64,000 nucleotides of DNA from a bacterium (GCA_041690355.1 JAWLHK010000002.1:1-64000), one strand, 5' to 3'; positions 35,122-56,691 are shown, counted from the stretch's first letter. Program-made: numbers and translations. The notes: generated by a model not told the origin, from the sequence alone.

Positions 35122-35168
35122 GGTCCTTGCCGATTCCCCCACTCTCCCACTCCCCCGCTCCCCCCCTC
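35122..35168. repeat. 47-bp direct repeat, copy 1 (C-rich octamer tract plus GGTCCTTGCC anchor)
   Basis: GGTCCTTGCCGATTCCCCCACTCTCCCACTCCCCCGCTCCCCCCCTC, identical to 35933-35979. Confidence 0.95.
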
Positions 35169-35211
35169 TACGTCGGGAATCGTTTCTCGCTCCCCCCTCG
35201 TGCGCCGACCC

Positions 35212-35610
35212 TCAGGGCACCACAACCTTCGGTCCGGCTTTCTGGAGTCGCGTGGCGCGAGCGCGAAGCCGCCGGTCGAATGTCGCGAATCGCTCAGCGG
35301 GCGAAGACAGGGCGAGGTGCAGCGCGTCGGCGAAATCAAGGCCGCCGGCGTACCCTTTGAGGGCAGCCTCGACGGCCTCGGGGTGATCGGGTTCGACCTG
35401 CGGCAGCGCAAGCAACTTGCGGAGCGCGGCCTCGATTACTTCCTTACGGAGCTCGTAGGCCGCACGCAGCACCCACTCGGTTTCGAGCAGCACGGTGACC
35501 GGAATCCATACGCGCGGTTCGCGAGCGATCAGCGCGGCGGCGCGCCTTGCCTGAAGCGGGTCATCCGCGGTCAGCAGCCGGACGATGACGTTCGTGTCGA
35601 GCGCGACCAT
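35212..35610 (-). CDS. vapC: PIN-domain toxin (VapC family)
   Basis: MVALDTNVIVR, VLLETEWVL, DFADAL, FATFDR. The start overlaps the antitoxin stop (TGATG). Confidence 0.92.
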   Translation of the reverse strand: MVALDTNVIVRLLTADDPLQARRAAALIAREPRVWIPVTVLLETEWVLRAAYELRKEVIEAALRKLLALPQVEPDHPEAVEAALKGYAGGLDFADALHLALSSPAERFATFDRRLRARATRLQKAGPKVVVP

Positions 35611-35867
35611 CAGCGCTTCGCGCGGCGCCGCGCCTCCTTGCGCACCGCCTCCTCCATCGCTTCGATCGTCATGGCGGTCCCTTGATATCCGGTGCACCCG
35701 AGTACGTCGCTTACACTGACGTCCGCAGGCGGCACGATCGGCTTCAAGAGCAGCCCCTCGGGGCGATCTTCGATTTCGAACTCGGTTCCGGTGCGCCACC
35801 GATGCGCCTCCCGCACGGGGCGGGGAATCACGATCTGGCCCTTGGTCGAAAGCTTGGTCCGTGGCAT
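35610..35867 (-). CDS. AbrB/MazE/SpoVT-family antitoxin
   Basis: TKLSTKGQIVIPRPVRE swapped-hairpin motif. 85 aa, immediately upstream of vapC. Confidence 0.92.
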   Translation of the reverse strand: MPRTKLSTKGQIVIPRPVREAHRWRTGTEFEIEDRPEGLLLKPIVPPADVSVSDVLGCTGYQGTAMTIEAMEEAVRKEARRRAKR

Positions 35868-35873
35868 TCCGTT

Positions 35874-35902
35874 ATTGTAAGACGAGAGGTAAGACGGCGC
35901 AA
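35874..35902 (-). promoter_or_regulatory. Sigma70-type promoter with tandem operator repeats (leaderless TA operon)
   Basis: Minus strand TTGCGC-17 bp-TACAAT-6 nt-ATG. GTAAGACG is repeated at 35877-35884 and 35889-35896. Confidence 0.7.
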
Positions 35903-35932
35903 GCGCCCCGCGATGGGCACCGGATGTGACCT

Positions 35933-35979
35933 GGTCCTTGCCGATTCCCCCACTCTCCCACTCCCCCGCTCCCCCCCTC
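35933..35979. repeat. 47-bp direct repeat, copy 2
   Basis: Identical to 35122-35168. Similarity continues about 20 bp further (CGGGAATC...). Confidence 0.95.
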
Positions 35980-36002
35980 CAAGGCGGGAATCTTTCGTTC
36001 CC

Positions 36003-36779
36003 CTACTTCACTTTCGTGTACTGGGGAAACTCCTCGGCCACTTCCTCGACGCGCCGCAGGTAGATCTTCTTCCAATGCGGCGAGCTGACCTTGAAGTCGC
36101 CGGCGCGCACGAACTCGATGTGCGTCCAGCCTTCGTCGTACCGTTCGTAATCAGCCAGCACCTTGGCGAGCGTGAGGCGATTGGCGGCGCGGCGCGGCTC
36201 GAGCTCCACGGCGCGCGCGAGGTGCTTCAGGGCCTTGTCCTTATCCCCTTTGCCGAGCGGCCATCCGGGAAGCTGGTAGTAGAGCAGCCCCAGGCTGCGG
36301 TCGGCGCCGCCATCGTCGATCTTCGGGTCCAGCTCGGCCGCTTTGTGGAAGGTATCGAGCAGATCGTTGACGAGAAAGATCGCCTTCATGCGATGGAAGT
36401 CGAGGTAGCAGAGTCCGATGGTCGCATAGTAGTACACGAGTTGCGGGTGCTTCGGATGTTTCTCGACCAGCCGCTTGGCCAGCGCATAGCCCTGGTCTGC
36501 GGCCCATTGCTGATCATCACGCCGGTCACGTTCGGTCAGCTCGTCATAGTAATTGAAGTACGCGCGCACGAGACGCCAGGCGACTTCGGGATCTTCGATG
36601 TCGTGGTGCTGATAGGCGTCGATCGCCTTGCGGATCCGTTCAGGTTCCCCCGACAATGCGGCGGCATCGATGGCGGCGAGCGACGGCGGGGCAGATGGCG
36701 CCGGTTGCTCTGCCTGCGCCGGTGCGGCAGTGACGAGAAACGCGCAGAGCGACAGCCATGCGAACGGGAAATGCCTCAT
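36003..36779 (-). CDS. Secreted TPR-like protein (TatT-like)
   Basis: Signal peptide. Helical TPR-like pattern with GGADRSLGLLYYQLPGWPLGKGDKDKALKHLARAVELEP. Confidence 0.7.
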   Translation of the reverse strand: MRHFPFAWLSLCAFLVTAAPAQAEQPAPSAPPSLAAIDAAALSGEPERIRKAIDAYQHHDIEDPEVAWRLVRAYFNYYDELTERDRRDDQQWAADQGYALAKRLVEKHPKHPQLVYYYATIGLCYLDFHRMKAIFLVNDLLDTFHKAAELDPKIDDGGADRSLGLLYYQLPGWPLGKGDKDKALKHLARAVELEPRRAANRLTLAKVLADYERYDEGWTHIEFVRAGDFKVSSPHWKKIYLRRVEEVAEEFPQYTKVK

Positions 36780-37423
36780 TGCGACGCCTCGGTCTCCTGC
36801 GCCGGATCCTGTGCGGCTTCGGTCGGCGCTGTGGCCGCAACGGGGGCGACGGCAGGCACGGCGGCAGAAGCGACTTTGCCGACCCCTTCGGTTTTCACCT
36901 CGCTTACTCGCTTCAGCGCGGCGAGCCCTTTTTCGAAGTCTGCGCCGACCAGGGCATCCATGTCGAAGAAGAGTGAGAACGCCTTGCCGAAGAAGCTATT
37001 CCGGCCGGCCATCGACCAGACGATCCTGGTGTGACCGTCCTCCACGGGGCTGAGCGTGAACACGGTTTCGTTGCGCGCCTCCATCGGCTCGAGAAAGGCC
37101 AGGTCAATCGCGATGCGCTCCGGGTCCTTGCTTTCGATAATCTTCATGCTCCCCTTGCCGACCTTGTCGTTTCCCTCCCAGGAGTACTTCGCGCCGACCC
37201 CTTGGTGCGGGCCTTCATACGTGCGCTTCAGCTCCGGATCGAGCCCCTCCCAGGGAGACCACCCCTGCCAGGCCCGCAGGTCGTTGATGTGGCGGAAGAC
37301 GGCGTCGGGGGGTGCCTGGATGGTCGTCATGCGCACGATACGGAACGTGTCTGGCTGCAGGGCGACAACCGTCAGGAGAATGGCGATCAGCACGAGGGCG
37401 GCGACAGCGATCTTCTTCAGCAT
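36776..37423 (-). CDS. SRPBCC/START-family protein (polyketide cyclase-like) with N-terminal TM
   Basis: WQGWSPW, GVGAKYSWEGN..VGKGSM, VGADFEKGLAALK. Confidence 0.88.
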   Translation of the reverse strand: MLKKIAVAALVLIAILLTVVALQPDTFRIVRMTTIQAPPDAVFRHINDLRAWQGWSPWEGLDPELKRTYEGPHQGVGAKYSWEGNDKVGKGSMKIIESKDPERIAIDLAFLEPMEARNETVFTLSPVEDGHTRIVWSMAGRNSFFGKAFSLFFDMDALVGADFEKGLAALKRVSEVKTEGVGKVASAAVPAVAPVAATAPTEAAQDPAQETEASQ

Positions 37424-37487
37424 CCGAAGCTCCGGAAAAGAAAGCGGTAGCATACCACGCGAGGGCTTTAAGTGACGAGCGACGTGA

Positions 37488-37690
37488 ATTTACGATTGAC
37501 GATTTACGATTGACGATTTGCCGGAACGTACCTCTGCTGGCGCTTGTACGCCCAATCGTCCCGAGCTGACGGGCTGGAACGGAAGCGAAAGCCGACAGCG
37601 AGGGAGCGCGCCTGGGTACCCTTGCGCCTGTCTCGCCGTCGCCGTTCGCCCTGCTGCCGTCCGTCGGCTCGACACGAACGGGAAAAGGAC
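37488..37690. repeat. ~200-bp palindromic MITE/REP-like element, copy 1 (heptamer tract plus long hairpin)
   Basis: (ATT[TG]ACG)x4 at 37488-37515, then a body sharing identical 29-bp (37593-37621) and 22-bp (37661-37682) blocks with 54439-54636. Confidence 0.88.
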
Positions 37691-37715
37691 TGACGACTGA
37701 AGACTGGCGACTGCC
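37688..37715. repeat. Tandem heptamer tract (GACTGnn)x4
   Basis: GACTGAC GACTGAA GACTGGC GACTGCC, abutting the cytochrome stop codon. Reverse complement of the 44014-44048 family. Confidence 0.85.
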
Positions 37716-39209
37716 TCAGAGCGTCTTCAGGTACTCCAGGACCGCCTTGCGCTCGTCATTCGTGAGGTGGTCGCCGAAGGTGTGCCCCGCGTTCGACTGG
37801 CTCCAGTAGGTCGTGTCGTAGATGTGCGGGCGCTCGGCTTCGGGCGCGTCCTTCTGCGCGTAGGTCACCGTCTGGAACGGCCAGCCGAGGGCGCGCTTGT
37901 CGTAGTTCGTGGAGTCGTAGTCCGCCCGCTTCCAGTACTTCGGCCGCTTCCTGCTGTTCAGCACCAGCTCGAGGGTCGGAACGGAACCGTTGTGGAAAAA
38001 GGGCGCGGTCGCCCAGATGCCGTCGAGCGGCGGGGGCATGTAGCCGGGGAAGGGGTCGGCGGGCTGCATCCGCGTAATCTGGCCGTAGAAGGAGTTGTTG
38101 TACCACTCCACCAGTTCGGGCGAATGGACCACCCCCGCTTCGGCGACGACCGGATCGGTGCCGATGATGTCGAGCGGTATCAGCAGGTTCGGGTACCAGT
38201 CGTCGGCCTCCTCGTCTCCGTAGGTTCCGTGGCAGCCGGCGCAGGTCTCGACGAAGACGCGGTGGCCGTCTTCCGCAAGATCCCCGTCGACCGGCCAGGG
38301 ATATTTCGGCGCGCGGATGGTCGAGATGTAGGCCTGGATATCCTGGAACATGGCGTCGACCTCGGCGGCGCGCTCCACGTCGTCGACGCAGACCGACGTG
38401 GCGAGGGCCATCGTGCCGCGATGGTCGCCGCGCGCCATGCCGTTGTAGAAGAGCGCGTTCTTCTTGTGCGCGCGCCACCACGGCGGCGGGTCGCTGGTCA
38501 CGACGGGATCGGGAATCTGGTTCCCCTGGTGATCGCGGACACTGATGGGGGTCACCAGCTCGTCGCTCCACGCGAGCGTCTCCCGGTCGTGGTGGGCCAT
38601 GAGCACGACGGCGAGCATCTCGGCCGGGTTCATGCCGATCGTGCGCATGGTCGTGAAGGGAGCGAGGGCGACGCCGCGCTGGGCCATCTTGCGCATGTTG
38701 GCCTTCTCGACTGCGGTCAGGCCGAGCGGGTCGAGAAAGGCGTCGGTGAGGGGGAGCTGGTCGACGTCGGCCGAATTCGTGAAGTTCGCCGTGCTGTTGC
38801 CCAGGCCGATGACCAGCTCGCCGTTGAACGAGCCGCCATGGCACATCAGGCAGTTGGCGTTGATGACCTGGGCGCCGTCGGGGCTCTCGAAGGAATTGAG
38901 AAAGTAGGGCAGATCTTCGTTGTAGCCCGTGCGCCCCGGAATGCGGGGGGCCTCGTCGTCGCCGCCGAAGGCCACGGCGATCTGCGACTGGGCGATGCCG
39001 AGATCCCAGAGCTTGTGCGGAATTCCGCACGTCATGTAGCTGCCGTTGAGCAGCAGCTCGCGGCCGCGCACCGGGTCGCCCTTCGCCTGGGCGGCGGTGG
39101 GGAGCACCTTGCCGTCGTTCCACGGGCCGACGGCCGGGATCTGGAGTTCGCTTTCGCACCCGGCGGCGAGTACCGCCAGACCGAGCCACAGTCCGATTCG
39201 AAGATTCAT
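37716..39209 (-). CDS. Di-heme c-type cytochrome lipoprotein (RoxA/cytochrome c peroxidase-like fold)
   Basis: Lipobox LAAGC, heme motifs CLMCH and CAGCH, PPPWW, LDGIWATAPFFHNGSVPTL, SNAGHTFG...ERKAVLEYLKTL. Confidence 0.85.
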   Translation of the reverse strand: MNLRIGLWLGLAVLAAGCESELQIPAVGPWNDGKVLPTAAQAKGDPVRGRELLLNGSYMTCGIPHKLWDLGIAQSQIAVAFGGDDEAPRIPGRTGYNEDLPYFLNSFESPDGAQVINANCLMCHGGSFNGELVIGLGNSTANFTNSADVDQLPLTDAFLDPLGLTAVEKANMRKMAQRGVALAPFTTMRTIGMNPAEMLAVVLMAHHDRETLAWSDELVTPISVRDHQGNQIPDPVVTSDPPPWWRAHKKNALFYNGMARGDHRGTMALATSVCVDDVERAAEVDAMFQDIQAYISTIRAPKYPWPVDGDLAEDGHRVFVETCAGCHGTYGDEEADDWYPNLLIPLDIIGTDPVVAEAGVVHSPELVEWYNNSFYGQITRMQPADPFPGYMPPPLDGIWATAPFFHNGSVPTLELVLNSRKRPKYWKRADYDSTNYDKRALGWPFQTVTYAQKDAPEAERPHIYDTTYWSQSNAGHTFGDHLTNDERKAVLEYLKTL

Positions 39210-39326
39210 CGACCCCTCCGCAATGCCTACCGATCGGTTGGCAGGCCCTCTCGTTGTACCGGAAACGGCCGGTCGGGGCAAGAGTGCGCGGTGGCGGTTC
39301 TGCGGCGCGATGCCTATAATCAACGG

Positions 39327-39788
39327 ATGAGTGACGGCGACCGGGCCATTGCGATCAACCGCAAGGCGACCTTCAATTACGCGATCGAAGACACCTACGA
39401 GGCGGGGATGATCCTGACCGGCTCGGAGGTGAAGGCGCTGCGCGAGGGGCAGGCGAACATCGGCGACGCCTTCGCGCGCGTGGGGCCCGACGGCGTCTAC
39501 CTGATCAATCTTCATATTCCGCCCTACACCAAGACGGGCCAGTTCGACCAGCACGAGCCGACGCGCACCCGCAAGCTGCTGCTGCACGCGGGCGAAATCG
39601 AGAAGATGCGCGCGAAGACGCAGGAGAAGGGGCTCACCCTCGTGCCCATGCGCATGTACTGGAAGAACGGGTACGCCAAGGTGCTGCTCGGCCTCGGCAA
39701 GGGCAAGAAGATGCACGACAAGCGCGCCGACATCAAAAAGAAAGAGGTCGCGCGCGAGGTGGCAAGGGCGATAAGGCAGGGGCGATAG
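39327..39788 (+). CDS. smpB: SsrA-binding protein SmpB
   Basis: NRKATFNY..EDTYEAGMILTGSEVKALR, HEPTRTRKLLLH, GKGKKMHDKR. TATAAT at 39315-39320, 6 nt before the ATG. Confidence 0.97.
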   Translation: MSDGDRAIAINRKATFNYAIEDTYEAGMILTGSEVKALREGQANIGDAFARVGPDGVYLINLHIPPYTKTGQFDQHEPTRTRKLLLHAGEIEKMRAKTQEKGLTLVPMRMYWKNGYAKVLLGLGKGKKMHDKRADIKKKEVAREVARAIRQGR

Positions 39789-39794
39789 CAGTCA

Positions 39795-39866
39795 TCGGAC
39801 GCCGGACGTCGGACCCCCCATCCGCTTCGCTACGGGGGGCAAGGCGTCGGAGGTCGGTGAGGCAAG
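39795..39866. repeat. (CGGACG[TC]) heptamer tract interrupted by a short REP-like hairpin, with GGCAAG anchors
   Basis: TCGGACG CCGGACG TCGGACC, hairpin CCCCCC-ATCCGCTTCGCTAC-GGGGGG, GCGTCGG AGGTCGG. GGCAAG at 39838 and 39861. Confidence 0.75.
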
Positions 39867-40041
39867 GGCTTCAAACAAGCGCGGATCTGGACGCCTGACC
39901 TGCCCTCTCCCCCGGGACAACGGCTGTCCGACCCTACTGGTAGAATCTCGCTTGTGGATGTTTTTACCGAGCTACAAAGTAGACACCCGCGCACGGTTGG
40001 GCAGGCGGCCAGGGTAGGGTGACATTCGGCACGCCGAACGC

Positions 40042-40070
40042 TTGCAAAACCGTATGCGGGGATGTAGGAT
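40042..40070 (+). promoter_or_regulatory. Sigma70-type promoter of the ncRNA-abi unit
   Basis: TTGCAA-17 bp-TAGGAT. Predicted start near 40077, just before the structured RNA. Confidence 0.7.
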
Positions 40071-40076
40071 GGACTA

Positions 40077-40136
40077 CAACAAAACCTGCCAAGGCTATGC
40101 GCGAAAGCGTATCCTCAAAACGGTGGGTTCCTTTTT
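40077..40136 (+). ncRNA. Putative abiF-motif RNA (antitoxin RNA of an AbiF type III-like TA system)
   Basis: Outer stem AACCTGCC(40083-90)/GGTGGGTT(40122-29), inner stem AGG/CCT plus ATGCGC-GAAA-GCGTAT (GNRA loop), then a U-tract. Lies between the promoter and an Abi_2 gene. Confidence 0.7.
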
Positions 40137-40154
40137 CTGGGGGCGCTGACGTTC

Positions 40155-41057
40155 ATGCAGCGCCCCTTTTCTAAACCCCCGACAACCTACGCCCAGCAGC
40201 TCGCCCTGTTGCGCGACCGAGGCATGCAGATCGACGACCAGGCCGAGGCCGAGTTCTATCTGCAGCACTTGAATTACTACCGCCTGGGCGCCTACTGGCT
40301 TCCCTTTGAGTCGAACCACACGGAGCATCGCTTTGTTGAGGGCACGCGTTTTCGCGATGTTTTGAACCTTTACTTGTTCGACCGGGAGCTGCGTCTGTTA
40401 ACGATGGACGCCGTGGAGCGGTTCGAGGTTTCTGTACGCAGTCAGTGGGCCTATCATCTTGCGCATCGTCATGGCCCCCACGCGCACTTGGATTCGTCGC
40501 TCGCGTATGACGTCGAACTCTGGGCCAAAAACCTTGCCAAGCTGACCAAAGAAGTCAAACGCTCGAAAGAAACATTCGTTCGCCATATGGTTCGCACGTA
40601 TTCCGAGCAGCTACCCCCCGTGTGGGCCGTCTGTGAAATCATGACGCTCGGTCTCCTCTCCCAGTGGTTCAACAGTCTTCGGCCGATGGGTACCCGCGAT
40701 GCGATTGCCGGTACCTATGGCATTGACCACAAAGTGCTGGAGTCCTGGCTGCATCACTTGACGACCGTCCGGAATATCTGCGCCCATCATGCGCGCCTGT
40801 GGAACCGGGAGTTTACCGTCATTCCGAAGTTGCCGCGCAAGCCGCAGGAACTCGCGGCGCAGTTCGTTCCCGGGTCGCGGCACATCTACAATACATTTGT
40901 GCTCCTTTCTCATTCGCTCGACATTGTCTCGCGTAACCACCACTGGCGCGGTCGCCTGGTCAATTTGATTGAGAAGCATCAGATTGATCCCGGGCATATG
41001 GGCTTCCCACCGGATTGGCAGGCAAGGCCACCCTGGAACACAGGGGTGGATTCGTAA
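40155..41057 (+). CDS. Abi family (Abi_2, AbiD/AbiF-like) HEPN ribonuclease
   Basis: [50 protein letters not shown] and HEPN motif RNICAH(H). Visibly more AT-rich codons than neighbouring genes. Confidence 0.92.
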
Positions 41058-41149
41058 CCCGCCGAGCCCGGAACCCTTCCACGGCCCCCCGACAGGCCCG
41101 GGGCGAACACTCACGCGATGGTCCTCTTCGGGGCGTAACTGATACAGAA

Positions 41150-41189
41150 CGTTCTTGCCTGATTGGCGCTCAGTGCTCGGCGCTTGGCG
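41150..41189 (-). repeat. (AGCGCCA)-family heptamer tract plus CAGGCAAG anchor
   Basis: Minus strand CGCCAAGCGCCGAGCACTGAGCGCCAATCAGGCAAGAACG. Same family as the tracts at 44054 and 45387. Confidence 0.8.
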
Positions 41190-41290
41190 TGGTTGAATTG
41201 ATGTTGGGGGGGGTATCGAATGTTGGCTTGCAGGTGACGCGCAATACGGGAAATCACCGACCCCTTTCCCCTGCGGCGGGGGGCAGCGTC

Positions 41291-41299
41291 TGGTATACT
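41291..41299 (+). promoter_or_regulatory. Extended -10 promoter of ssrA
   Basis: TG-G-TATACT about 50 nt upstream of the tmRNA 5' end. Leader hairpin GGCTGAG-GGAAAC-TTCAGCC at 41309-41328. Confidence 0.55.
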
Positions 41300-41351
41300 G
41301 AATTTCATGGCTGAGGGAAACTTCAGCCGCACTCTTTCTCAAGTGAATCTG

Positions 41352-41702
41352 GGGGGCGACTGGTTTCGACGGGGATGTCGAAGCGTGGAGTCGCGTGTCG
41401 AGTTGCTGCCAGCTCGTTAAAACGGTAGAACACAATAATCGGCAACGATTACGACTACGCTCTGGCTGCTTAATTAAGCAACCACGGAAACGGTTGAACG
41501 CCCACGTCAATCGGTTCCGCTAATCAGTGGGCTGGCCTTTCGCGAACACCCGGTGCGCGAGGGGCGAGACAAAGGCCGGGTCCGTTCTCGGAGAATCCTG
41601 TCTATCGGAGTCCCTGAGAACCAGATCAAACGATAGACTACACACGTAGTGGCTTGCGTGTAGCTTCCTCGGACGTGGGTTCGATTCCCACCGCCTCCAC
41701 CA
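41352..41702 (+). ncRNA. ssrA: tmRNA
   Basis: 5' GGGGGCGACTGGTTTCGAC, 3' T-arm GTGGGTTCGATTCCCAC-CGCCTCC-ACCA with the G3:U alanine pair. Tag ORF 41441-41473 encodes GNDYDYALAA-stop. Confidence 0.97.
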
Positions 41703-41729
41703 TTTCAGATTCTTGCAGGTTCCAATTAC

Positions 41730-41761
41730 GCCCGTAAAGCTTCGGTTTTACGGGCTTTTTT
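41730..41761 (+). terminator. Rho-independent terminator of ssrA
   Basis: GCCCGTAAAGC-TTCG-GTTTTACGGGC-TTTTTT. Confidence 0.92.
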
Positions 41762-41805
41762 GTCTGGAGGCCCAGCGCGGTTGACGTCGGCGGGATCGAT
41801 CCGGC

Positions 41806-42234
41806 TCACGCCGCCCCGACCACCTCGAACCCCTCTTTCTCGGCTGCCCGGCTGAGTCGAGCGTCGAGACAGACGAAGGGTAAAGCGCCCGGCTTTCCCT
41901 CAGAGGCAACCCATGCCGCCGCAAGCTGCATGGCATCGGCCGCACGTAGATCGTGTACACGAAGGAGCCGGATGGAGACGTCGCGTACGCTCTCCGTCGG
42001 CGTGATTTCATGCCAGGCATCTTGAAGGACATGAAGCCGGCGAAACGCCTCCCTGACGCTGCCCAGCTCAATGCTCCCTTCGCGCTCAAGGCGGGAGAGT
42101 GCAGACGCACATTCGATAGCGGTGCTCCACCAGGTAAGCATGCCCGCATCCGCCGCGAGAAGTTGCTGCATTGCCGCCGAGGAAGCTTCTGCCGCCAGCA
42201 GTGGGACCATCGCCGAACTGTCCCAGTACCTCAT
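41806..42234 (-). CDS. vapC: PIN-domain toxin (VapC family)
   Basis: MRYWDSSAMVPLL, IECASAL, LRAADAMQLAAA, FVCLDARL. Overlaps the antitoxin stop (ATGA). Confidence 0.92.
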   Translation of the reverse strand: MRYWDSSAMVPLLAAEASSAAMQQLLAADAGMLTWWSTAIECASALSRLEREGSIELGSVREAFRRLHVLQDAWHEITPTESVRDVSIRLLRVHDLRAADAMQLAAAWVASEGKPGALPFVCLDARLSRAAEKEGFEVVGAA

Positions 42235-42527
42235 CGGCCCTCTTCCCGCTCGGTCAGGAGTGCGTTAAGCGCGCTTCGAGAACTCTGCGGGGGCGTCGAT
42301 TCGATGATTTCGCGGGGCAGGGAGCTGGTCTTTGCGCGCCGGACCAGGCCGTTACGTTCAAGGCGCTCGACAAGCCCCTCGGCTGCGCCCGCAGCACGGG
42401 CTTGCACCGGCATCAGTTGGGCCACCGGGATGTTCCGGTCCGTGACGATGACGGTTTCGCCGTTGCGGACGTGGTCGAGCAACTGGCTGAGACGATTCTT
42501 GGTCTCCGTGACCGATGCCTTTTTCAT
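42231..42527 (-). CDS. Phd/YefM-family antitoxin
   Basis: SVTETKNRLSQLLDHVRNGETVIVTDRNIPVAQLMP. Confidence 0.92.
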   Translation of the reverse strand: MKKASVTETKNRLSQLLDHVRNGETVIVTDRNIPVAQLMPVQARAAGAAEGLVERLERNGLVRRAKTSSLPREIIESTPPQSSRSALNALLTEREEGR

Positions 42528-42533
42528 AAGGCT

Positions 42534-42562: not shown

Positions 42563-42576
42563 GCGTCCTTCCTTCC

Positions 42577-42611
42577 CCGACGTCCGACGTCCGGCGTCTG
42601 ATGTCCGAGGC
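42577..42611. repeat. Tandem heptamer tract (CCGACGT)x5, degenerate
   Basis: CCGACGT CCGACGT CCGGCGT CTGATGT CCGAGGC. Inverted relative to the tract at 39795. Confidence 0.85.
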
Positions 42612-42616
42612 GCCCG

Positions 42617-44013: not shown

Positions 44014-44138
44014 CAGTCATTAGTCGCCAGTCGCCAGTCAGCAGTCACTGAGGCAAGCGCCAAGCGCCAACCAGGCAAGTACCTGCTGCATCAGGCACCT
44101 TGCGGCAAATCGTCAATCGTAAATTGTCAATCGTAAAT
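44014..44138. repeat. Composite heptamer-repeat module (three tract families and anchors)
   Basis: (CAGTCnn)x5 at 44014-48, GGCAAG at 44052, (AAGCGCC)x2, CAGGCAAGTACCTG/CAGGCACCTTGC hairpin at 44072-44103, ([CT]GT[CA]AAT)x4 at 44111-38. Confidence 0.9.
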
Positions 44139-44206
44139 CCTTGTGACTCGTCACTTGCTAAGGAGGGGTCGGGGTGATATCGTTTCGGCAATCAAAGGGG
44201 TACGCC

Positions 44207-45376: not shown

Positions 45377-45386
45377 CGGCTTTGGG

Positions 45387-45483
45387 AAGCGCCAAGCGCC
45401 AAGCGCTGAGCGCCAACAACAGGCACCTTCCGCACGAGGTCCTTGCCGGGCAAATCGTCAATCGTCAATTGTAAATTGTCAAT
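45387..45483. repeat. Composite heptamer-repeat module, direct counterpart of 44054-44138
   Basis: (AAGCGCC)x4, CAGGCACCTT, GGTCCTTGCC at 45438-47, ([CT]GT[CA]AAT)x4 at 45456-83. Confidence 0.9.
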
Positions 45484-45892
45484 TGGCGGGTGCGCGGAGC
45501 CGGAGGCGCGGGAAGTGGCGCCGGTACCGGCGCGGGTCGCGGGTGAGCAGCGTGAGCCCCGCGATGGCCGCGTGGGCGCCGATGTAGAAGTCGGGGAGCG
45601 GCGAGCGTCTGGTTCCGCCTTCGCGACGATAGCGCAGGAAGCACTTTCCGGCGAGAAATCCGGCTTCCCAGGGGAGCGGCAAGCGTGTGAACTCTGCCGG
45701 CGGGAGCGCATCCTCCAGGGCTTCGATGGTGTCGAAACCGACCGAAACTTCCGCATAGATGAGCGGATTAATCGCCAGCCGCCCCGCATCCGCCGCGTCG
45801 GCGAGTGCCGCGGCCGACCACGCGAACCAGGCTGGATCCTCGGTGAGAACGTCGAGCAGGACGTTGCTGTCGACGAGGGTGATCTCAGTCAT
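45479..45892 (-). CDS. vapC: PIN-domain toxin (VapC family)
   Basis: LVDSNVLLD, IYAEVS, PLPDFYIGAHA, LLTRD. Confidence 0.93.
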   Translation of the reverse strand: MTEITLVDSNVLLDVLTEDPAWFAWSAAALADAADAGRLAINPLIYAEVSVGFDTIEALEDALPPAEFTRLPLPWEAGFLAGKCFLRYRREGGTRRSPLPDFYIGAHAAIAGLTLLTRDPRRYRRHFPRLRLRAPAN

Positions 45893-49165: not shown

Positions 49166-50929
49166 ATGGAACATCGTGGTCCGAAGCGTATCGAAAAGGG
49201 AACCCCGCGCATTCCGCCGAACCTTGCGGACTATGAGGCGCTCCGCCGTTCGTTCGGCTGGGACGACGCTCGCCGCGAACTGGCGGGACTCCTCGGCGGC
49301 GGACTGAACATGGGGTACGAAGCCGTGGACCGGCATGCCGACGGACCCCTCGCCGCCAAGCTCGCGATCCGCTGGCTGGACAAGGCGGGGGCAGTTCGCG
49401 ATTTCACCTTTGCGGATCTGAAAGCGCAGACCGGCCGGTTCGCGAACGTCCTAAAGAACCTCGGGGTCGAGAAGGGCGACCGCGTCTTCGTGCTCATGGG
49501 GCGCGTGCCCGAACTGTATTTCGCGGTGCTCGGCGCCCTGCGCCACGGGGCCGTGGTCTCGCCGCTCTTTTCCGCCTTCGGCCCCGAGCCGGTCAAAGCG
49601 CGCCTGACCATCGGTGCCGGAAAGGTTCTCGTCACCACCGCCACGCTGTACCGGCGCAAGGTGGAACCGGTGCGCGCCGAGCTGCCGACCCTGCAACACG
49701 TGCTGGTGCTCCCCGACGAGGGGGGAACGTTTCCCGAGGGAACCCTGAATCTGCTCGAGCTGCTCGCCGGCGCGCCGGAGGAATTCCAGACCGCCGCCAC
49801 GCAGCCCGAGGATCCGGCTCTGCTCCACTTCACGAGCGGCACCACTGGCAAACCGAAAGGGGCGTTGCACGTGCACGACGCCGTGACCGAGCATCGCATC
49901 ACCGGCCGCTGGGCGCTCGATCTGCACGACGACGACGTCTTCTGGTGCACGGCCGATCCGGGCTGGGTCACCGGCATGTCGTATGGGATTCTCTCCCCGT
50001 TGGCCAATGGCGTGACGAGCATCGTCGACGAGGCCGACTTTGACGCCAGACGCTGGTACCGGATTCTGGCGGAACAGAAAGTAAGCGTCTGGTACACGGC
50101 GCCCACTGCTATCCGCATGATGATGAAGGCGGGGGCCGACCTGGCGAAGCAGCAGACCTTTCCGGCGTTGCGCTTCATCGCCAGCGTGGGCGAGCCGCTC
50201 AATCCCGAAGCGGTCTTCTGGGGACTCGATGCCTTCGGCCTTCCCATCCACGACAACTGGTGGCAGACGGAGACGGGGGGCATCATGATCGCCAATTTCG
50301 CCGCCCTCGACATCAAGCCCGGTTCCATGGGCCGCCCGATTCCCGGCGTCGAGGTCATGCTCGCCAAACGCGACGAGGCGGGGAACGTGTCGCCGGTGAC
50401 GAAGCCGGGCGAAGAGGGGGAGATCGCCATCCGCACGGGATGGCCCTCCATGTTCCGCACCTACCTTCACGAGGAAGAACGCTATCGCAAGTGCTTTGCC
50501 GGCGACTGGTACTTCTCGGGCGACCTGGCGACCTGCGACGCCGAGGGGTACTTCTGGTTCATGGGGCGCGTCGACGACGTCATCAAATCCGCCGGGCACC
50601 TGATCGGTCCCTTCGAGGTCGAGAGCGCGCTCATGGAGCATCCCGCCGTGGCCGAGGCGGGGGTCATCGGCAAGCCGGAACCGGTGGCCGGCGAAATCGT
50701 GAAAGCCTTCGTCGCCCTCAAGCACGGCTATGAAGACACGCCGGCCCTGCACCGCGACCTGCTCGGGTTCGCGCGCAAGCGGCTCGGCCCGGCCGTGGCG
50801 CCGCGGGAGATCGACATCGTTCCCACGCTCCCCCGCACGCGCAGCGGCAAGATCATGCGGCGCCTGCTCAAGGCCCGCGAACTGGGACTTCCCGAAGGGG
50901 ACACTTCGACACTGGAGAGCGGCGCATGA
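49166..50929 (+). CDS. acsA: Acetate--CoA ligase
   Basis: [60 protein letters not shown]. The real start is 2 nt after the ppsA stop. Confidence 0.93.
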
Positions 50930-51912
50930 GCCAGCCACGCGCGACCCGCGAAGAAGAACACCGGCTGCTCGGCGACATGCTGCGCATCCGCCGGTTCGAA
51001 GAGAAGTGCGCCGAGAAGTATACGGAGGGGAAGATTCGCGGTTTTCTTCACCTGTACATCGGCGAAGAAGCCATCGCCGCCGGGGCCCATGCCGCGCTGG
51101 AGGAAGGGGACAACGTGCTCACGACGTACCGCGAACACGGTCACGCGTTGTTGCGCGGCGTTCCGGCCGACCGCATCATGGCCGAAATGTACGGCAAATA
51201 CGAAGGGTGCAGCCGGGGACGCGGCGGATCGATGCACCTGTTCGATGTCTCGAAACGCTTCTACGGCGGCAACGCCATCGTCGCGGGGCATCTCCCCATT
51301 GCCGTCGGTCTGGCGCTCGCCGACCGGATGAAGAACCGCGCCCAGCTGACGGCCTGCTTCTTCGGCGAAGGGGCGATGGCCGAGGGGGCCTTCCACGAAT
51401 CGATGAACCTCGCGGCCCTGTGGAAGCTGCCGGTGCTCTTTCTCTGCGAAAACAATTATTACGCCATGGGGACGGCGCTCGCGCGATCGGAATCGCAGCT
51501 CGACCTGTGCGCCAAGGCCCGCTCCTACAACGTACCGGCCGAGTCGGTCGACGGCATGGACGTGACCGCGGTAGCCGAAGCCGTGCACTATGCGGGCGGG
51601 CGGGTACGGAGCGGCGAGGGTCCGATGTTCCTTGAGTTCCGCACCTATCGCTTCCGCGCCCACTCGATGTTCGATGCGGAGCTATACCGTGACAAGGGCG
51701 AGGTGAAGGAAGCGAAGAAACGGGATCCCATCCAGCTCTTTTCCGAGCGCCTGCGGGCGGCGGGGCGGCTGACCGACGAGGAATACGCGAAGCTCGACAC
51801 GCAGGCGAACGAAGAAGTCGAAGCGGCCGTCGCCTTCGCCGAGCGGGGGACGTGGGAGCCGGTCGAGGACCTGACCCGCGATGTCTACTGCCGGGAGGTG
51901 AACTGTGGCTGA
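50926..51912 (+). CDS. pdhA: Pyruvate/2-oxoacid dehydrogenase E1 alpha subunit
   Basis: [28 protein letters not shown] motif FFGEGA...[12 protein letters not shown]. Confidence 0.93.
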
Positions 51913-52915
51913 GAAGGCAGGCGAATCGTCCGGCGCCCCGCAGCGCATGACCTACCGCGAAGCCGTGCGCCAGGCGCTGCGCGAGGCCCTCGCGGGGGAC
52001 CCGAACGTGTTTCTCATGGGCGAAGACGTCGGGATGTACGGGGGAACCTATGCGGCCAGCAAGGGGCTCATCGAGGAGTTCGGTCCCGAACGCGTTCGCG
52101 ATGCGCCGCTCTCCGAGGTCGGCTTCACCGGCGCGGGGGTCGGCGCCGCGCTGGGCGGCGTACGTCCTATCGTCGAGATCATGACGGTGAACTTCGCGCT
52201 GCTGGCCCTCGATCAGATCGTGAACAATGCGGCGACCCTGCGGCACATGTGCGGCGGCCAGGTGAGCGTGCCGCTCGTCATCCGCATGGCGACCGGCGCG
52301 GGCAGGCAGCTTGCCGCCCAGCACTCGCACAGCCTCGAGGGCTGGCTCGCCCACGTTCCGGGGATTCGCGTGGTTGCGCCCGCGACCGTCAGCGACGCGC
52401 GCACGATGCTGCGGGCCGCGCTCGACGACCCCGATCCCGTCATCATTGCGGAACATGCGACGCTCTACAACGTGGAGGAGGAACTCGACCCCGCGGTGAA
52501 GCCCGACATCGATCACGCGGTCGTGCGCCGGCCCGGCAAGGACCTGTCGCTGATCACGTATGGAGGAATGCTGCGGCGCACCCTCGACGCCGCCACAGAG
52601 CTGGCCGGGGAGGGGATCGACGCCGAAGTGCTCGACCTGCGCACGCTGCGGCCGCTCGACGAGAAGGCCATCCTCGACACGGTGCGCAAGACGAAGCGCG
52701 CCGTCATCATTGACGAAGCCTGGCGCAGCGGGAGCCTTTCCGCCGAAATCTCAGCGCGTCTTCACGAACGTCTTTTCTACGAACTCGAGGCTCCGGTGGC
52801 CCGCGTCTGCGGCGCCGAAACGCCGATCCCTTACCCGAAGCACCTCGAAGAGGCCGCCGTGCCGCAGACACCCACTATCGTCGCCGAGGTCAAGCGGCTC
52901 ATGGGGCGCACATGA
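51905..52915 (+). CDS. pdhB: Pyruvate/2-oxoacid dehydrogenase E1 beta subunit
   Basis: [47 protein letters not shown]. Confidence 0.92.
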
Positions 52916-54189
52916 AGGAATTCCGCATGCCCTCGCTCGGGGCCGACATGGACGCCGGGACCCTTGCGGAGTGGTCCGTGAAGCCGGGCGATCGCGTCTC
53001 GAAGGGCGACATCGTCGCCGTCGTCGAGACCGACAAAGGGGCCATCGAAGTGGAGTGCTTCGACGAGGGCATCGTCGATACGCTGCTGGTGGAACCGGGG
53101 ACGCGCGTGCCGGTGGGTACCGCGATGGCCATGCTGCGGTCCCCCGAAGAGGATTCCGCTGCCGCACCCCCGGCGCCGGCGGCCGCGGAGCCTGCCCGTG
53201 CCGAGCCGGAGGCTCTTCCCCAAATCCCTGAGGCGGCGCCGGCGGAACCCGCCGCCGCCCCGCCCGAAGTTCCGCCCGTGGCCGAGCGGCCGCAACCGGA
53301 AGGTCCTTCCGTGCCGAAGGAGGAAGCGGGGATCCGTGCGGTGCCCGGCGCGCGCAAACTGGCCGCCGAAGCCGGGGTCGAACTGCGCGACGTGCGCGGA
53401 ACCGGCGAAGAGGGTTCCATCACCCGGGCCGACGTCGAGCGCCATCTGGCCGCGCGCAAGCCGCGCGAAGTTCCGCCGGCGAAAGCGGACCCGGCCGTCG
53501 ATCGGCAGGCCGCCATGCGACGGGCCATCGCCGCGGCCATGGCCAAGGCGAATCGCGAAATTCCGCATTACTACCTGAGCGACAATATCGACGTCACCGA
53601 AACGCTGCGCTGGCTCGAAGCGCGCAACGCCGAAAAGCCGCTGCGGGAGCGGGTGCTGGCGGGGGTTCTCTTTCTCAAGGCGGTGGCGATGGCCGCGAAG
53701 CGCGTCCCCGAGGTCAACGGTTTCTGGAAGGACGACCATTTCGAACCTTCTGCCGCCGTGCACGCGGGGGCCGCCATCGCGCTGCGCCAGGGCGGGCTCG
53801 TCGCCCCCGCCATTCGCGATGCCGACCGGCTGACGATCGACGAACTCATGCAGAAGCTCGCCGATCTCATCGGGCGCACCCGCAGAGGGGGGCTGCGCAG
53901 CTCGGAGCTGAGCGACGCGACGATCACGGTGACGAGTCTCGGCGATCTCGGCGTCGAGACGGTGTGGGGGGTGATCTATCCGCCGCAGGTTGCTCTGGTC
54001 GGATTCGGGGCGCCGGTCGAACGACCGTGGATCCACGAGGGGGAGCTTGCCATCCGCAAGGTGGTCACGGTGACGCTGGCCGCCGACCACCGGGCCAGCG
54101 ACGGCCTGCGCGGCGCCAAATTTCTCCAGCTCGTGAAGCGCTATCTGGCGCGTCCTGAGCACTTGGAAGAAACGGAAGGGACGACATGA
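52912..54189 (+). CDS. Dihydrolipoamide acyltransferase (E2)
   Basis: One lipoyl domain ([10 protein letters not shown]), Pro/Ala linker, E1/E3-binding [13 protein letters not shown], catalytic DHRASDG. Confidence 0.92.
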
Positions 54190-54443
54190 CGCGTGAAGAA
54201 ATCCGCAAGGCGTTCGAGACGGCGCTCGGCGAGATCGCGCCGGAGATCGACCTGTCGACCATCGACCCGGCGCGCTCCTTCCGCGAGCAGGCCGAGATCG
54301 ACTCCTTCGACAATCTGAACCTGCTCATCCGCCTGCACGAGCTGACGGGCGTCGAAATTCCGGAATCCGACTACGACCAGATCCAGACGCTGGACGGCCT
54401 GATCGACTACGTGAAGTCACGAGTTACGAGTGACGGGAATTGA
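54186..54443 (+). CDS. Acyl carrier protein
   Basis: 85 aa, acidic, IDSFD phosphopantetheine site, GVEIPESDY...TLDGLIDYV. Overlaps the E2 stop (ATGA). Confidence 0.88.
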   Translation: MTREEIRKAFETALGEIAPEIDLSTIDPARSFREQAEIDSFDNLNLLIRLHELTGVEIPESDYDQIQTLDGLIDYVKSRVTSDGN

Positions 54444-54636
54444 CGATTTACAATTTACGATTGACGATTTACCGGCAAGTACCTGTGAGCACCCTTGTCC
54501 GTTCGTCCCGAGCTGACCGACCGGAACAGGATGGAGGTCGACAGCGAGGGAGCGCGCCTGGGTACCCCCGCGCCTGTCTCGCCGTCGTTCAGGCTCTGCC
54601 TTCACCGTCGGCTCGACACGAACGGGCAAGGGGGAC
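54439..54636. repeat. ~200-bp palindromic MITE/REP-like element, copy 2
   Basis: (ATT[TG]AC[GA])x4 plus GGCAAGTACC at 54474. 15-bp arms 54492-54506/54618-54632 close a long imperfect hairpin with GGGTACCC near its centre. Confidence 0.9.
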
Positions 54637-54662
54637 GGGTCGGCCATTGGCCATACCATTCC

Positions 54663-55136
54663 TTATCCAGCTTGCAGTTCCCCGAACCGCTCGGCGAGCA
54701 CGCGGCGGCGGAAGTCGAAGATTTGCTCCAGCTGCGGACGCACGATCCACGGTTCCACCAGCCGTCCCAGGGGACCGAACGGAAGCCGGTAGTGCACGAT
54801 GTCTTCCATCTCGACGCCCCCGTCGAGCGGCTGCAGGCGGTGCTGGTGGTGCCAGAAGGCGTAGGGGCCGACGCGCTGCTCATCCACGAAGAAGTAGGGA
54901 GCATCCACGTGCGTGATCTCGGTGACCCAGTGCACGGGAATGTCGAGCAGCGGCCGCACCGTGTACTCGATGATCTGGCCGGCGAAGGTCGTGGCGCCCG
55001 GGTCGCGCAGGACCGTGAAGCGCATGGCCGGCGGCGTAATCCGCGCAAGGTTGTGCGGATCGCAGAAAAAGGCCCACGCGTCTTCAAGCGGAACGCGCAG
55101 GCGCTGACGGCGGTGAAGACGGTGCAGCGCGGGCAT
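54663..55136 (-). CDS. SRPBCC-family protein
   Basis: AWAFFCDPHNLARITPP, WVTEIT, FVDEQRVGPYAFWHHQH, IFDFRR. Confidence 0.88.
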   Translation of the reverse strand: MPALHRLHRRQRLRVPLEDAWAFFCDPHNLARITPPAMRFTVLRDPGATTFAGQIIEYTVRPLLDIPVHWVTEITHVDAPYFFVDEQRVGPYAFWHHQHRLQPLDGGVEMEDIVHYRLPFGPLGRLVEPWIVRPQLEQIFDFRRRVLAERFGELQAG

Positions 55137-55231
55137 GGGTTCAGCCTGAGGCGCGGCGGCGGAATCGTCAAGCCGTCCCTGAATGTTTTGCATCGAAGGG
55201 CCCAGGGGCTCCTCCAGTTTCGCCGTCTCTC

Positions 55232-55384
55232 CTAGTGCGCTTCCCGTGCCGATTGCCCCTGGGCCGCCGTTCGAGTGTCCGGGACAGAGTCCCGGTCGAC
55301 TACCTTGCCGACGAAGGCGAGCGTAACGAGCGTGAAAAGCGCCAGAATGAACCAGTCTGAGGGGCTGCGAAGCCGAGAGAACAT
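55232..55384 (-). CDS. Small single-TM membrane protein (50 aa)
   Basis: GAGGAG RBS, MFSRLRSPSDWFILALFTLVTLAFVGK... with one hydrophobic helix. Confidence 0.55.
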   Translation of the reverse strand: MFSRLRSPSDWFILALFTLVTLAFVGKVVDRDSVPDTRTAAQGQSAREAH

Positions 55385-55607
55385 GGGGCGAGTCTCCTCT
55401 TCCAGAAAGGGGGGGAATTGTGAAGACGGCGGCCCGGTTCTCCCAGGGAGTCTGTGCGGAATTCCCGGGCCGCGTCTCCTGGGATTCATTCTCGGTTACA
55501 GCGGCGGCGCCGGGTATGACATCGATCATAGGGGGCGCAGGCGCCTGCATTCCTGCCGTCTCTCTCGTAGAATTGCCCTCCGCCGACCGTCCGCGTACCA
55601 TGCAGGG

Positions 55608-56552
55608 ATGCACTTTGCGAACCTTTGCTCCGGCCATGTTTCCAGATGGAAGCGGGCGGCCTGCGCGGCCGTCCTTGTGCTGGCCGTCGGCGCCTGTACA
55701 GCGACGGAACCCGATCCGGTCGCGGGACCGAAGCTCGATCCGAATCCCTCGCTGACGATCGGCGGCGACCGGCCCGCCAAGGTCGTGCTCCCCGAGGACT
55801 ATTCGATTCACGCCAGGTATCCGCTCGTCGTTCTGCTGCACGGCTACGGCGCGAACGCCGAGGCGCAGGACTTCGTGTTTCACCTGCGGCGGCGGGTGAC
55901 CAAGCGGCAATTCATTCTCGTGCTTCCCGAGGGGAACCTCGATCCGACCGGCGCGCAGTACTGGAATTCGATGCCTGACTGCTGCGACCTGGGCCTGCCC
56001 AACGACATTGACGACGTCGCGTACCTGTCCGGCCTTCTCGACGAGGCGGCGGAGTTGTACGCGATCGACCCGGCGCGCGTGAACTTCGTCGGGCACTCGA
56101 ACGGCGGATACATGTCATACCGCATGGCTTGCGAAATTCCCGAGCGGATTCACGCCGTGGCCGTGCTGGCCGGTTCGGTCTTTCTCGATGAGGCCGACTG
56201 CAAGGGCACCGAGCCGGTCTCGGTCCTGCACATGCACGGCACGGCCGACGACGTCGTTCCCTATGAAGAGGACCTGGTGATGGAGCCCGGCGAGTTCCCC
56301 CTGATCACGGTGGGGGCCGAGGCCGCCGTCCAGCGCTGGGTCGACAAGGCCGGGTGCACGGGAAATCCCGCGACGGCGGCGGCCGATCTGCTGTCCGGAA
56401 TCGCGGGCGCCGAGACCGAGATGCGCACCTGGTCGACCTGCGCCGACGGGGTGACCGTCAGCCTCTGGCGCATGACGGGCGGCGACCATCTGGTGCTCGA
56501 CGTGAACGACACCTTCCGTGACGGGGTCGTCGACTTCCTGCTCGCCCCCTAG
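55608..56552 (+). CDS. PHB-depolymerase/LpqC-like esterase lipoprotein
   Basis: Lipobox AVGAC, PLVVLLHG, DDVAYL, IDPARV..GHSNGG, HMHGTADDVVP, GGDH. Confidence 0.88.
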   Translation: MHFANLCSGHVSRWKRAACAAVLVLAVGACTATEPDPVAGPKLDPNPSLTIGGDRPAKVVLPEDYSIHARYPLVVLLHGYGANAEAQDFVFHLRRRVTKRQFILVLPEGNLDPTGAQYWNSMPDCCDLGLPNDIDDVAYLSGLLDEAAELYAIDPARVNFVGHSNGGYMSYRMACEIPERIHAVAVLAGSVFLDEADCKGTEPVSVLHMHGTADDVVPYEEDLVMEPGEFPLITVGAEAAVQRWVDKAGCTGNPATAAADLLSGIAGAETEMRTWSTCADGVTVSLWRMTGGDHLVLDVNDTFRDGVVDFLLAP

Positions 56553-56568
56553 CGCCCCCTCCGGGGCC

Positions 56569-56691
56569 GCATTCCTGATGCCTGATTCTTGATTCCTGAG
56601 CGGCAAGGGCCCCGCCCCGGCATTCATCACCCGACTTTTGTCTTGCCTGCTCTTGCTTCGTCAAGAATCAGGAATCAGGAATCAGGAATGC
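56569..56691. repeat. 123-bp element with ~30-bp terminal inverted repeats made of (ATTCCTG) heptamers
   Basis: GC(ATTCCTG)x4 at 56569-98 with GGCAAG at 56602. Mirrored CTTGCC at 56642 and (CAGGAAT)x4-GC at 56662-91. Confidence 0.88.

Follow-up and report, generated by a model that had tools for sequence, protein, structure and literature searches.

Why should tandem tracts of dissimilar 7- and 8-nt words stand beside one and the same short box? The question is raised by a 64,000-nt stretch of bacterial DNA (GCA_041690355.1, JAWLHK010000002.1:1-64000, here C2:1-64000), hereafter called the window. Between its positions 35,122 and 56,691, several intergenic tracts adjoin the hexamer GGCAAG. 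An initial annotation had proposed that a single trans-acting enzyme recognizes this anchor and creates or spreads the tracts. After extending the analysis to the whole genome and to other genomes, we favor, on balance, a different answer. The tracts would be arms belonging to a family of mosaic elements, probably mobile, that is related to cassettes around PF05635 genes; the paralogous four-helix-bundle proteins encoded by these genes would be the likely partners; and the box GGCAAGGRC would be an inner junction common to the element families and, among the genomes sampled, peculiar to this one. The anchor grammar, like the agreement in words between orphan tracts and cassettes, is new here.

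Enrichment and polarity of the anchor

The genome (4.64 Mb, 42 contigs, ~65% GC) was scanned with Tandem Repeats Finder (TRF). At 3.5 or more copies, period 7 gave 667 rows, versus 108 of period 6 and 66 of period 8. Merging of the period-7 rows that reached 3 copies yielded 744 tracts with 86 canonical units; the six commonest units (AATCGTC 119, ACGAGTG 90, AATCAGG 81, AAGCGCC 63, AAATCGT 44, and ACGTCCG 35) accounted for 432 of them. Tracts had a median length of 31 nt (5-95% range, 22-50 nt). Variation within a word was confined to 1-2 positions, as in ATT[G/T]ACG and ATTC[C/T]TG, the other positions being 93-100% conserved over hundreds of units. The initial annotation counted at least six unrelated unit families, but not all families are unrelated, ATTKACG and AGTKACG (GAGTGAC) being one base apart.

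When 40-nt flanks were read outward from the tracts, GGCAAG was the top hexamer, with 157/1488 occurrences versus 25.0 expected from random genome windows (6.3-fold). It lay 0-9 nt past the tract end in 143 cases, and a peak of its partner CTTGCC followed 20-29 nt beyond. Seen from the intergenic GGCAAG copies, a tract was situated on the 5' side in 155 cases, on the 3' side in 15, and nowhere near in 576, i.e. a polarity of ~10:1. Once the tract-adjacent copies were removed, the intergenic density of GGCAAG was no higher than that within genes. In the window itself, GGCAAG occurred 56 times versus 32.6 ± 5.4 in 100 shuffles, none of which reached 56. The genome-wide enrichment and orientation on which the initial annotation had staked its claim were thus both found.

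From 255 tract-adjacent sites the box was derived as C(G/A)GCAAG(G)(A/G)C, 85% of them having C at +7; the consensus is given as CGGCAAGGAC. Polarity was a property of the individual units as well. ATTGACG ran into GCAAG in 41 of 119 tracts versus 0-1 for the opposite arrangements and ATTCCTG in 38 of 81 versus 0; the corresponding counts were 29 of 90 for GAGTGAC and 23 of 63 for AAGCGCC. With a relaxed anchor (at most 2 mismatches to GGCAAGGAC), the five main families (512 tracts) bore it on the predicted side in 235 cases and on the opposite side in 8. C/G-rich octamers had a GCAAG box on the predicted side in 34 of 66 cases and on the other side in 4. All in all, ~37-46% of the tracts have an anchor and more than half have none. 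The initial statement that most tracts are followed by GGCAAG therefore stands as to enrichment and strict orientation (235 versus 8), but not as to "most" when the whole genome is considered.

In many bacterial genomes, heptanucleotide repeats form the commonest class of long simple sequence repeats, for which polymerase slippage has been held responsible (Mrazek et al. 2007, summarized in PMC4679880). That the tracts are ordinary slippage microsatellites, with GGCAAG adjacent by chance in high-GC DNA, is nevertheless scarcely credible, being contradicted by the 6.3-fold hexamer enrichment, the 10:1 polarity, the ~31-nt length, and the inward pairs and cassette words described below. A single anchor-recognizing enzyme is a more serious contender. 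Such an enzyme (a HUH-type nuclease or transposase of the RAYT kind, a recombinase, or a template-reiterating polymerase or reverse transcriptase) would bind GGCAAGGRC and write a ~31-nt tract 5' of it, each strand of a palindromic anchor pair gaining its tract independently. The strict polarity, the constant 0-9-nt gap between tract and anchor, and the narrow range of tract length all agree with this idea.

Paired arms and copied elements

Consecutive arms of the five main families that lay 20-70 nt apart faced inward in 72 cases and outward in 1. Their pairing was biased: ATTKACG|AAGCGCC occurred 34 times and AGTKACG|AAGCGCC 19 times, together 53 of 73 close inward pairs. AAGCGCC, ATTKACG, and AGTKACG have the box in common because they make up the two ends of a single composite element family. 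Hence the single anchor across unrelated units noted in the initial annotation is real, but it largely reflects two arms of one family. Bigger arrays also repeated with fixed order and constant junctions, for example (CGTCACT)n-GGGGTG-(AAGCGCC)n and (AATCGTC)n-TGCCCTGATT-(CGTCACT)n.

An arm comprises a tract of a 7-nt word (~4.4 copies, ~31 nt), a short linker that is specific to the family, and, toward the interior, the box C(G/A)GCAAG(G)(A/G)C. Two such arms face each other across an interior of 20-70 nt, and some interiors also hold a palindromic module of 126 nt. This module forms a separate repeat family with ~60 or more genome copies (70-88% identity) and is often lodged between heptamer arms. 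For the copy at 37556-37681, folding gives a long hairpin (-70.4 kcal/mol, z -4.83), the tip of which bears the anchor-like GGGTACCCTTGCG.

Among 121 interiors, a homologue at another locus was found for 31% at a normalized score of at least 0.6, a level partly due to shared boxes, for 15% at a score of at least 0.75, and for 0% after shuffling. Because interiors are homologous between loci, whole elements must have been copied. The outer flanks of many elements are further tracts. At C14:71786-72099, four head-to-tail copies of a 65-nt unit (an AATCGTC arm plus a 34-nt interior) were observed; whole elements can therefore also amplify in tandem.

The anchor pair was also considered as a maintained stem. 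Of the four bases beyond GCAAG/CTTGC, 1.47 were identical after complementing versus 1.71 ± 0.12 in shuffled pairs (n = 38). Since there is no covariation past the anchor pair, the box is conserved as sequence and not as a stem, and the stem was dismissed. The element at 56571-56689, both arms of which have the same word, forms a long hairpin (-64.5 kcal/mol, z -6.55) and represents the gene-less form of a PF05635 cassette.

How does the writing enzyme fare against these pairs? Its independent acquisition of tracts predicts different words within a pair, as is the case in 62 of 73. Whole-tract word switches (ATTKACG versus AGTKACG) imply joint renewal of all units, and the conservation of anchors as sequence also counts in its favor. 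The non-random pairings (34 + 19) and the homologous interiors, however, speak for the copying of whole elements and not for the addition of single tracts. Over half of the tracts are anchorless, as are some PF05635 cassettes of this genome, and tracts of the same word in other genomes adjoin GGCAAG in 1 of 83 cases. Nor could a suitable gene be assigned. The sole Y1/HUH gene of the genome, an IS200-like gene at C3:284649-284990, has its nearest tracts at 15.1 kb and 4.9 kb and unique flanks by BLAST; the sole reverse transcriptase gene has no tract within 3.2 kb, and neither gene is close to a box. The link to HUH or reverse transcriptase enzymes proposed initially was thus lost, and an integrase link was not found either. 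The same annotation was right that the window encodes no candidate enzyme, as no PF05635, Y1_Tnp, or RVT_1 match was obtained in C2:1-64000, which holds gene-less forms only. In sum, we consider the single writing enzyme unlikely. As a separate observation, the sole reverse transcriptase (532 aa, C18:60746-63206) is encoded directly downstream of a gene for a 283-aa Abi_C-domain protein, a defense-type layout unrelated to the repeats.

Cassettes around PF05635 genes

The protein partners of the preferred reading are suggested by the full-length relatives, in which inverted arms of one word surround a small PF05635 gene (Avd-like, 23S-rRNA-intervening-sequence-protein family). Ten genes of the genome exceeded the Pfam cut-off for PF05635, among them those at C20:48752, C7:230799, C23:56172, and C2:371993. 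Eight of them had tracts on both sides within ~180 nt, the other two on one side. In six of the eight two-sided cassettes, the second arm repeated the word of the first in inverted form with no more than 1 mismatch; in one it was inverted with 2 mismatches, and in one it was direct. By a stricter criterion (merged period-7 tracts within 200 nt), both sides were occupied in 6 of 10 PF05635 genes versus 67 of 3719 genes (1.8%). Each cassette has one word: CGGACGT, GCGCTGG, GTAAGTC, ATTCCTG, GGCATTT, ATTGACG, CAATGGT, or a G-rich octamer. The box was seen on the inner side of the arm and in the expected polarity in four cassettes; some have no anchor.

The seven heptamer words of the cassettes recur in the orphan tracts. 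Counting either strand, 597 of 727 orphan tracts (82%) were within 1 mismatch of a cassette word and 259 matched exactly, versus 13.9% and 0.6%, respectively, for random GC-weighted heptamers. Genome-wide, PF05635 was the only recurrent cargo between matched arms. Genes for NDK, YaeQ, and transaldolase also lay between matched inverted tracts; these are ordinary housekeeping genes and were therefore regarded as neighbors, not as cargo. Three near-identical PF05635 cassettes with the CGGACGT word were noticed (C5:69058, C5:71706, and C2:371993), two of which share the start of the following gene. Some copies are thus part of larger duplications and not moves of the cassette alone.

On the preferred reading, the elements would be selfish DNA, mobile now or once. 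Each PF05635 paralogue would act on them in trans by reading a word of its own. The closest solved homologue is 2GSC (E 4e-24), and the 2GSC and 2RLD entries each contain 5 chains. Perhaps one word is read per protomer of a pentamer, which would explain an arm of ~4.4-5 units and 31 nt. The box, common to the element families here, might be an inner junction for joining arms of different words or the site of a common host factor. Stated as options, it could be a host factor site, an arm-exchange junction, or an inheritance from a founder element. In a bolder version, which strikes us as possible rather than probable, heptamer repeats at large, including the short tandemly repeated repetitive sequences (STRR) and long simple sequence repeats (LSSR), would be recognition arms of pentamers of PF05635/Avd-like proteins with one word per protomer. 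The GGCAAGGRC box would then be a common docking, cleavage, or joining site that recombines arms, giving rise to a combinatorial, protein-addressed grammar of mobile elements.

Several claims open to testing follow: that each paralogue binds its own word, that the box has a binder, and that arms move or are swapped between strains. Heptamer repeats would gain a candidate protein partner, and the oriented box gives each arm a direction. If the reading is true, a function would be at hand for a very widespread family that we otherwise know only as Avd, the accessory protein of diversity-generating retroelements (DGR), and as the open reading frame (ORF) of rRNA intervening sequences (IVS). The present genome is an extreme case, with ~1 tract per 6 kb and repeat words that mirror those bracketing its own PF05635 genes.

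Elements of the window

TRF called period-7/8 arrays in the window at 35135, 35946, 37488, 37688, 39796, 42577, 44014/44022, 44054, 44107, 45387, 45453, 54439, 56571, and 56661. All tracts of the initial annotation were recovered in this way except that at 41163, which is too degenerate for TRF and was read by eye. Exact GGCAAG (+) or CTTGCC (-) sites are at 35126-, 35937-, 39861+, 41154-, 44052+, 44074+, 45442-, 54474+, 56602+, and 56642-, either where they had been placed initially or 4 nt away where positions had been counted from GGTCCTTGCC. As had been claimed for the first 35 kb, TRF found no tract of at least 2.4 copies before position 35000. The arms and associated features are as follows.

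35126..35168, minus strand: arm, CTTGCC anchor plus C-rich octamer tract (TCCCCCAC x4.2); TRF and sequence
35937..35980, minus strand: arm, second copy, CTTGCC plus octamer tract x4.4; TRF and sequence
37488..37532, plus strand: arm, ATTKACG x4.4, then degenerate anchor GGAACGTACC; TRF and sequence
37556..37681, no strand assigned: 126-nt palindromic module, first copy in the window, separate repeat family; repeat search and folding
37688..37713, plus strand: GACTGAC/GACTGRM x3.7 tract without exact anchor; TRF
39796..39866, plus strand: arm, CGGACGY x2.7, then GGCAAGG at 39838 and 39861; TRF and sequence
40155..41057, plus strand: Abi_2 (abortive-infection-like) gene between the inward-facing arms at 39796 and 41154; PF07751, E 1.6e-57
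41154..41190, minus strand: arm, CTTGCC plus degenerate GGCGCT-type tract (reverse complement of AAGCGCC); read by eye
42564..42608, minus strand: arm, degenerate anchor (CGTCCTTCC) plus CCGACGT x4.6; TRF and sequence
44014..44057, plus strand: arm, CAGTCRC x5, then GGCAAG at 44052; TRF and sequence
44054..44083, plus strand: arm, AAGCGCC x2.4, then GGCAAGTACC at 44074; TRF and sequence
44094..44139, minus strand: arm facing the 44054 arm, degenerate anchor GGCACCTTGCG plus AAATCGT/CAATCGT x4.7 (reverse complement of ATTKACG); TRF and sequence
45387..45416, plus strand: arm, AAGCGCC x4.3 with a degenerate anchor only (GGCACC); TRF and sequence
45438..45485, minus strand: arm facing the 45387 arm, GGTCCTTGCC plus AATYGTC x4.7; TRF and sequence
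54425..54483, plus strand: arm, two GAGTKAC units, then ATTKACR x4.9, then GGCAAGTACC at 54474; TRF and sequence
54503..54632, no strand assigned: 126-nt palindromic module, second copy in the window, 82% identical to the first; repeat search
56571..56611, plus strand: arm, ATTCYTG x4.1, then GGCAAGGGCC; TRF and sequence
56642..56689, minus strand: arm complementary to the 56571 arm, CTTGCC/CTTGCT plus TCAGGAA x4.1; TRF and sequence

A filled and an empty site

Among the comparison genomes, one (G001) belongs to the same family and three to the same phylum. The spacer from the smpB stop codon to the tmRNA gene measures 1563 nt here (39789-41351) and ~93 nt, tract-free, in G001. The extra ~1.4 kb starts with the CGGACGY arm and GGCAAGG, holds the Abi_2 gene, which is of lower GC content, and ends with CTTGCC and the GGCGCT-type arm. 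A comparison of filled and empty sites in relatives, as suggested by the initial annotation, thus shows the spacer filled here and empty in G001, in a single case and with a genome ~68% identical in coding DNA. The Abi_2 gene is regarded as context or cargo, separate from the repeat itself.

The octamer arms at 35126 and 35937 are direct repeat copies of ~75 nt around a toxin-antitoxin pair. This pair consists of a PIN toxin and a MazE/AbrB-type antitoxin, encoded on the minus strand at 35212-35867, between the two direct copies (35122-36010). A second PIN gene at 45479-45892 adjoins the 45387-45485 element.

Distribution in other genomes

In a sample of 61 genomes around this lineage, PF05635 was matched in 24. 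At 26 loci of this sample of relatives, tracts of 7-8 nt stood on both sides of the gene in 12 cases, on one side in 8, and on neither in 6. A wider search with one protein of this genome as the query returned 62 loci from Acidobacteriota, Planctomycetota, Chloroflexota, Bacteroidota, WOR-3, Verrucomicrobiota, and one gammaproteobacterium. For the 55 loci with full flanks, tracts of 7-9 nt were found on both sides in 26 (23 of these with the same word inverted), on one side in 18, and on neither side in 11. Within 250 nt of the gene, these 55 loci had 2.8 tracts per kb, versus 0.26 per kb further out. The cassette build is thus shared across phyla. For 77 loci, protein identity correlated with word distance (Spearman -0.28; reached by 0 of 500 permutations), and word turnover was fast, as 21% of the pairs with 60-80% protein identity had the same word. 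Because kin are not independent, the correlation is taken as co-descent and not as specificity.

When 400 kb of each genome was sampled, period 7 peaked above periods 6 and 8 in 3 of 5 PF05635-positive genomes versus 0 of 3 negative ones, a small sample. The period-7 counts were 68 for this genome, 29 for G001, and 18 for G043.

The ATTKACG word, often arranged as tract, spacer, and inverted tract, occurred in Acidobacteriota, Bacteroidota, Verrucomicrobiota, Chloroflexota, Planctomycetota, a cyanobacterium, and Desulfobacterota. Its presence in very distant phyla points to horizontal spread of the element or to repeated convergence on one word. ATTKACG x3 was found in 0 of 30 relatives (G001 and 29 further genomes). 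When 83 ATTKACG tracts from 80 loci of other genomes were collected without regard to their flanks, GGCAAG lay within 25 nt downstream in 1, and GCAAG was downstream in 3 and on the other side in 2. GGCAAG was thereby ruled out as a universal partner of ATTKACG and as a general companion of such tracts. Thirty metagenome contigs with tract plus GGCAAG had been chosen for that box and are uninformative on its frequency, and a metagenome search via the ABC1 kinase confirmed no close relatives. G001 has its own heptamer words, and the GGCAAG box is absent from it. Among the genomes sampled, the box is rare outside the present one.

In the 400-kb sample of G001, GTGCA/TGCAC-type motifs such as CCGTGCAACCGTGCAGC were noticed in 11 of 68 tract flanks. 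From this small sample, G001 may have a constant box of its own.

A possible host function and the weight of the evidence

By a crude codon-bias gene caller of our own, 688 of 744 tracts (~92%) are intergenic; the caller overlooked 6 of the 10 PF05635 genes. Spacers of every kind are occupied, tracts being most crowded in convergent spacers (170 in 108 kb) and sparsest in divergent spacers (145 in 192 kb). This placement would fit arms that are host cis-elements, i.e. arrays, kept by selection, that bind a factor of the nucleoid, of termination, or of RNA stability, which may be a domesticated PF05635 protein. So would the 93-100% conservation of most word positions while interiors diverge, and the degeneracy, which is position-specific and resembles that of binding motifs. 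Yet the elements showed no bias in orientation relative to neighboring genes (17 versus 14), by which an orientation-dependent function at the RNA level was also rejected. Words and anchor are absent from G001 and the 29 further relatives, G001 using other words; the first 35 kb of the window is free of tracts, and the smpB-tmRNA spacer is empty in G001. Upkeep by the host is hence judged improbable. Three-frame stop codons were also tried as the reason for the words: by eye they fit ATTKACG, GAGTGAC, and ATTCCTG, and they do not fit AAGCGCC or CGGACGT.

The reading that we prefer, arms of a PF05635-related element family, has to bear a number of opposing points. Most close pairs are heterologous, only 11 of 73 sharing a family, and elements with heterologous arms fold no better than shuffles (45385-45487, z -1.18; 44050-44141, z -0.08), unlike a plain decayed cassette hairpin. 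Neither AAGCGCC nor AGTKACG, both of them abundant, is the word of a cassette with the same polarity in this genome, and the word match between orphans and cassettes is lenient as to strand and one mismatch. No transposase was found in the PF05635 cassettes, and we know of no catalytic activity for PF05635. No period-7 peak was seen in G008 or G021 (19 weak matches). A scan for three copies of CCCCAGT, which we take to be the STRR1 word, yielded 80 loci, mostly in Nostocales, and a PF05635 ORF was within 1 kb in 2 of the 80. Both of these loci, in Nodularia and in a proteobacterial metagenome-assembled genome, are bracketed as GGGGAYT...CCCCAGT. Most STRR tracts, like most tracts here, are orphans. 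Finally, the smpB-tmRNA and PIN/MazE cases are each single, the former at the coding identity given above, and the intergenic assignments depend on the crude gene caller.

Relation to known repeats

To our knowledge, no origin, function, or partner protein is accepted for the heptanucleotide arrays of cyanobacteria and many other bacteria, although such arrays have been listed for decades. The STRR units are said to go back to Mazel and colleagues in 1990. Heptamer LSSRs and TAACTGA repeats are described as unexplained in PMC4679880. A literature search, with most subscription journals outside its reach, retrieved no link of PF05635 or four-helix-bundle genes to heptamer repeats and no account of an anchor or protein partner for STRR or LSSR.

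Like STRR and LSSR, the tracts are dispersed, mostly intergenic 7-nt tandem runs of several word families with hundreds of copies (for LSSR, PMC4679880). In Nodularia, a PF05635 gene is bracketed by the STRR1 word CCCCAGT, just as in the cassettes here. In contrast to STRR and LSSR, 37-46% of the tracts are followed by an oriented box, arms form inward pairs, and tract length is fixed at ~31 nt. The TAACTGA repeats of marine Beggiatoaceae are likewise abundant intergenic heptamers of 2-6 copies with suspected mobile or regulatory roles, and some cyanobacteria and Bacteroidetes share them (PMC4679880). They comprise a single word, mostly oriented to downstream start codons, whereas many words, no bias in orientation to genes, and a constant anchor are found here.

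The 23S rRNA IVSs that bear an ORF resemble the cassettes in having a small PF05635 gene between complementary arms, of which eight two-sided examples exist here. The window elements differ in that they are situated between protein genes, are ORF-less, and have an extra box and mostly unpairable arms. Excision by RNase III is the defining behavior of IVSs. In PMC10053308, PF05635 is treated as Avd-like, with some members encoded by IVSs. The candidate partner here is thus of one fold and family (PF05635) with Avd of DGRs; no DGR exists here, the sole reverse transcriptase being away from tracts and PF05635 genes.

Repetitive extragenic palindromes (REP), bacterial interspersed mosaic elements (BIME), and the REP-associated tyrosine transposases (RAYT) offer another parallel. 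They too are intergenic mosaics of high copy number, assembled from a handful of short motifs whose order recurs; they include inverted pairs, and a single trans-acting protein has been proposed for them (PMC3733652). REPs, however, are 20-40-bp palindromes with GTAG or CGTC and not tandem heptamers. Here there is no stem covariation, and the sole Y1 gene is not flanked by elements. Miniature inverted-repeat transposable elements (MITEs) are similar in being gene-less, ~100-130 bp long, with ends inverted (here in polarity and anchor), many copies, either orientation, and a longer gene-bearing form. They are dissimilar in that the ends here can, and mostly do, differ in word family and that the gene-bearing form is without a transposase.

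Additional observations

At the gathering threshold, Rfam matched the tmRNA alone in the window, with no match to a heptamer element or the 126-nt module. ARAGORN predicted a tRNA-Lys(CTT) gene at 57430-57523; its length of 94 nt is unusual and could reflect an intron, an insertion, or a miscall.

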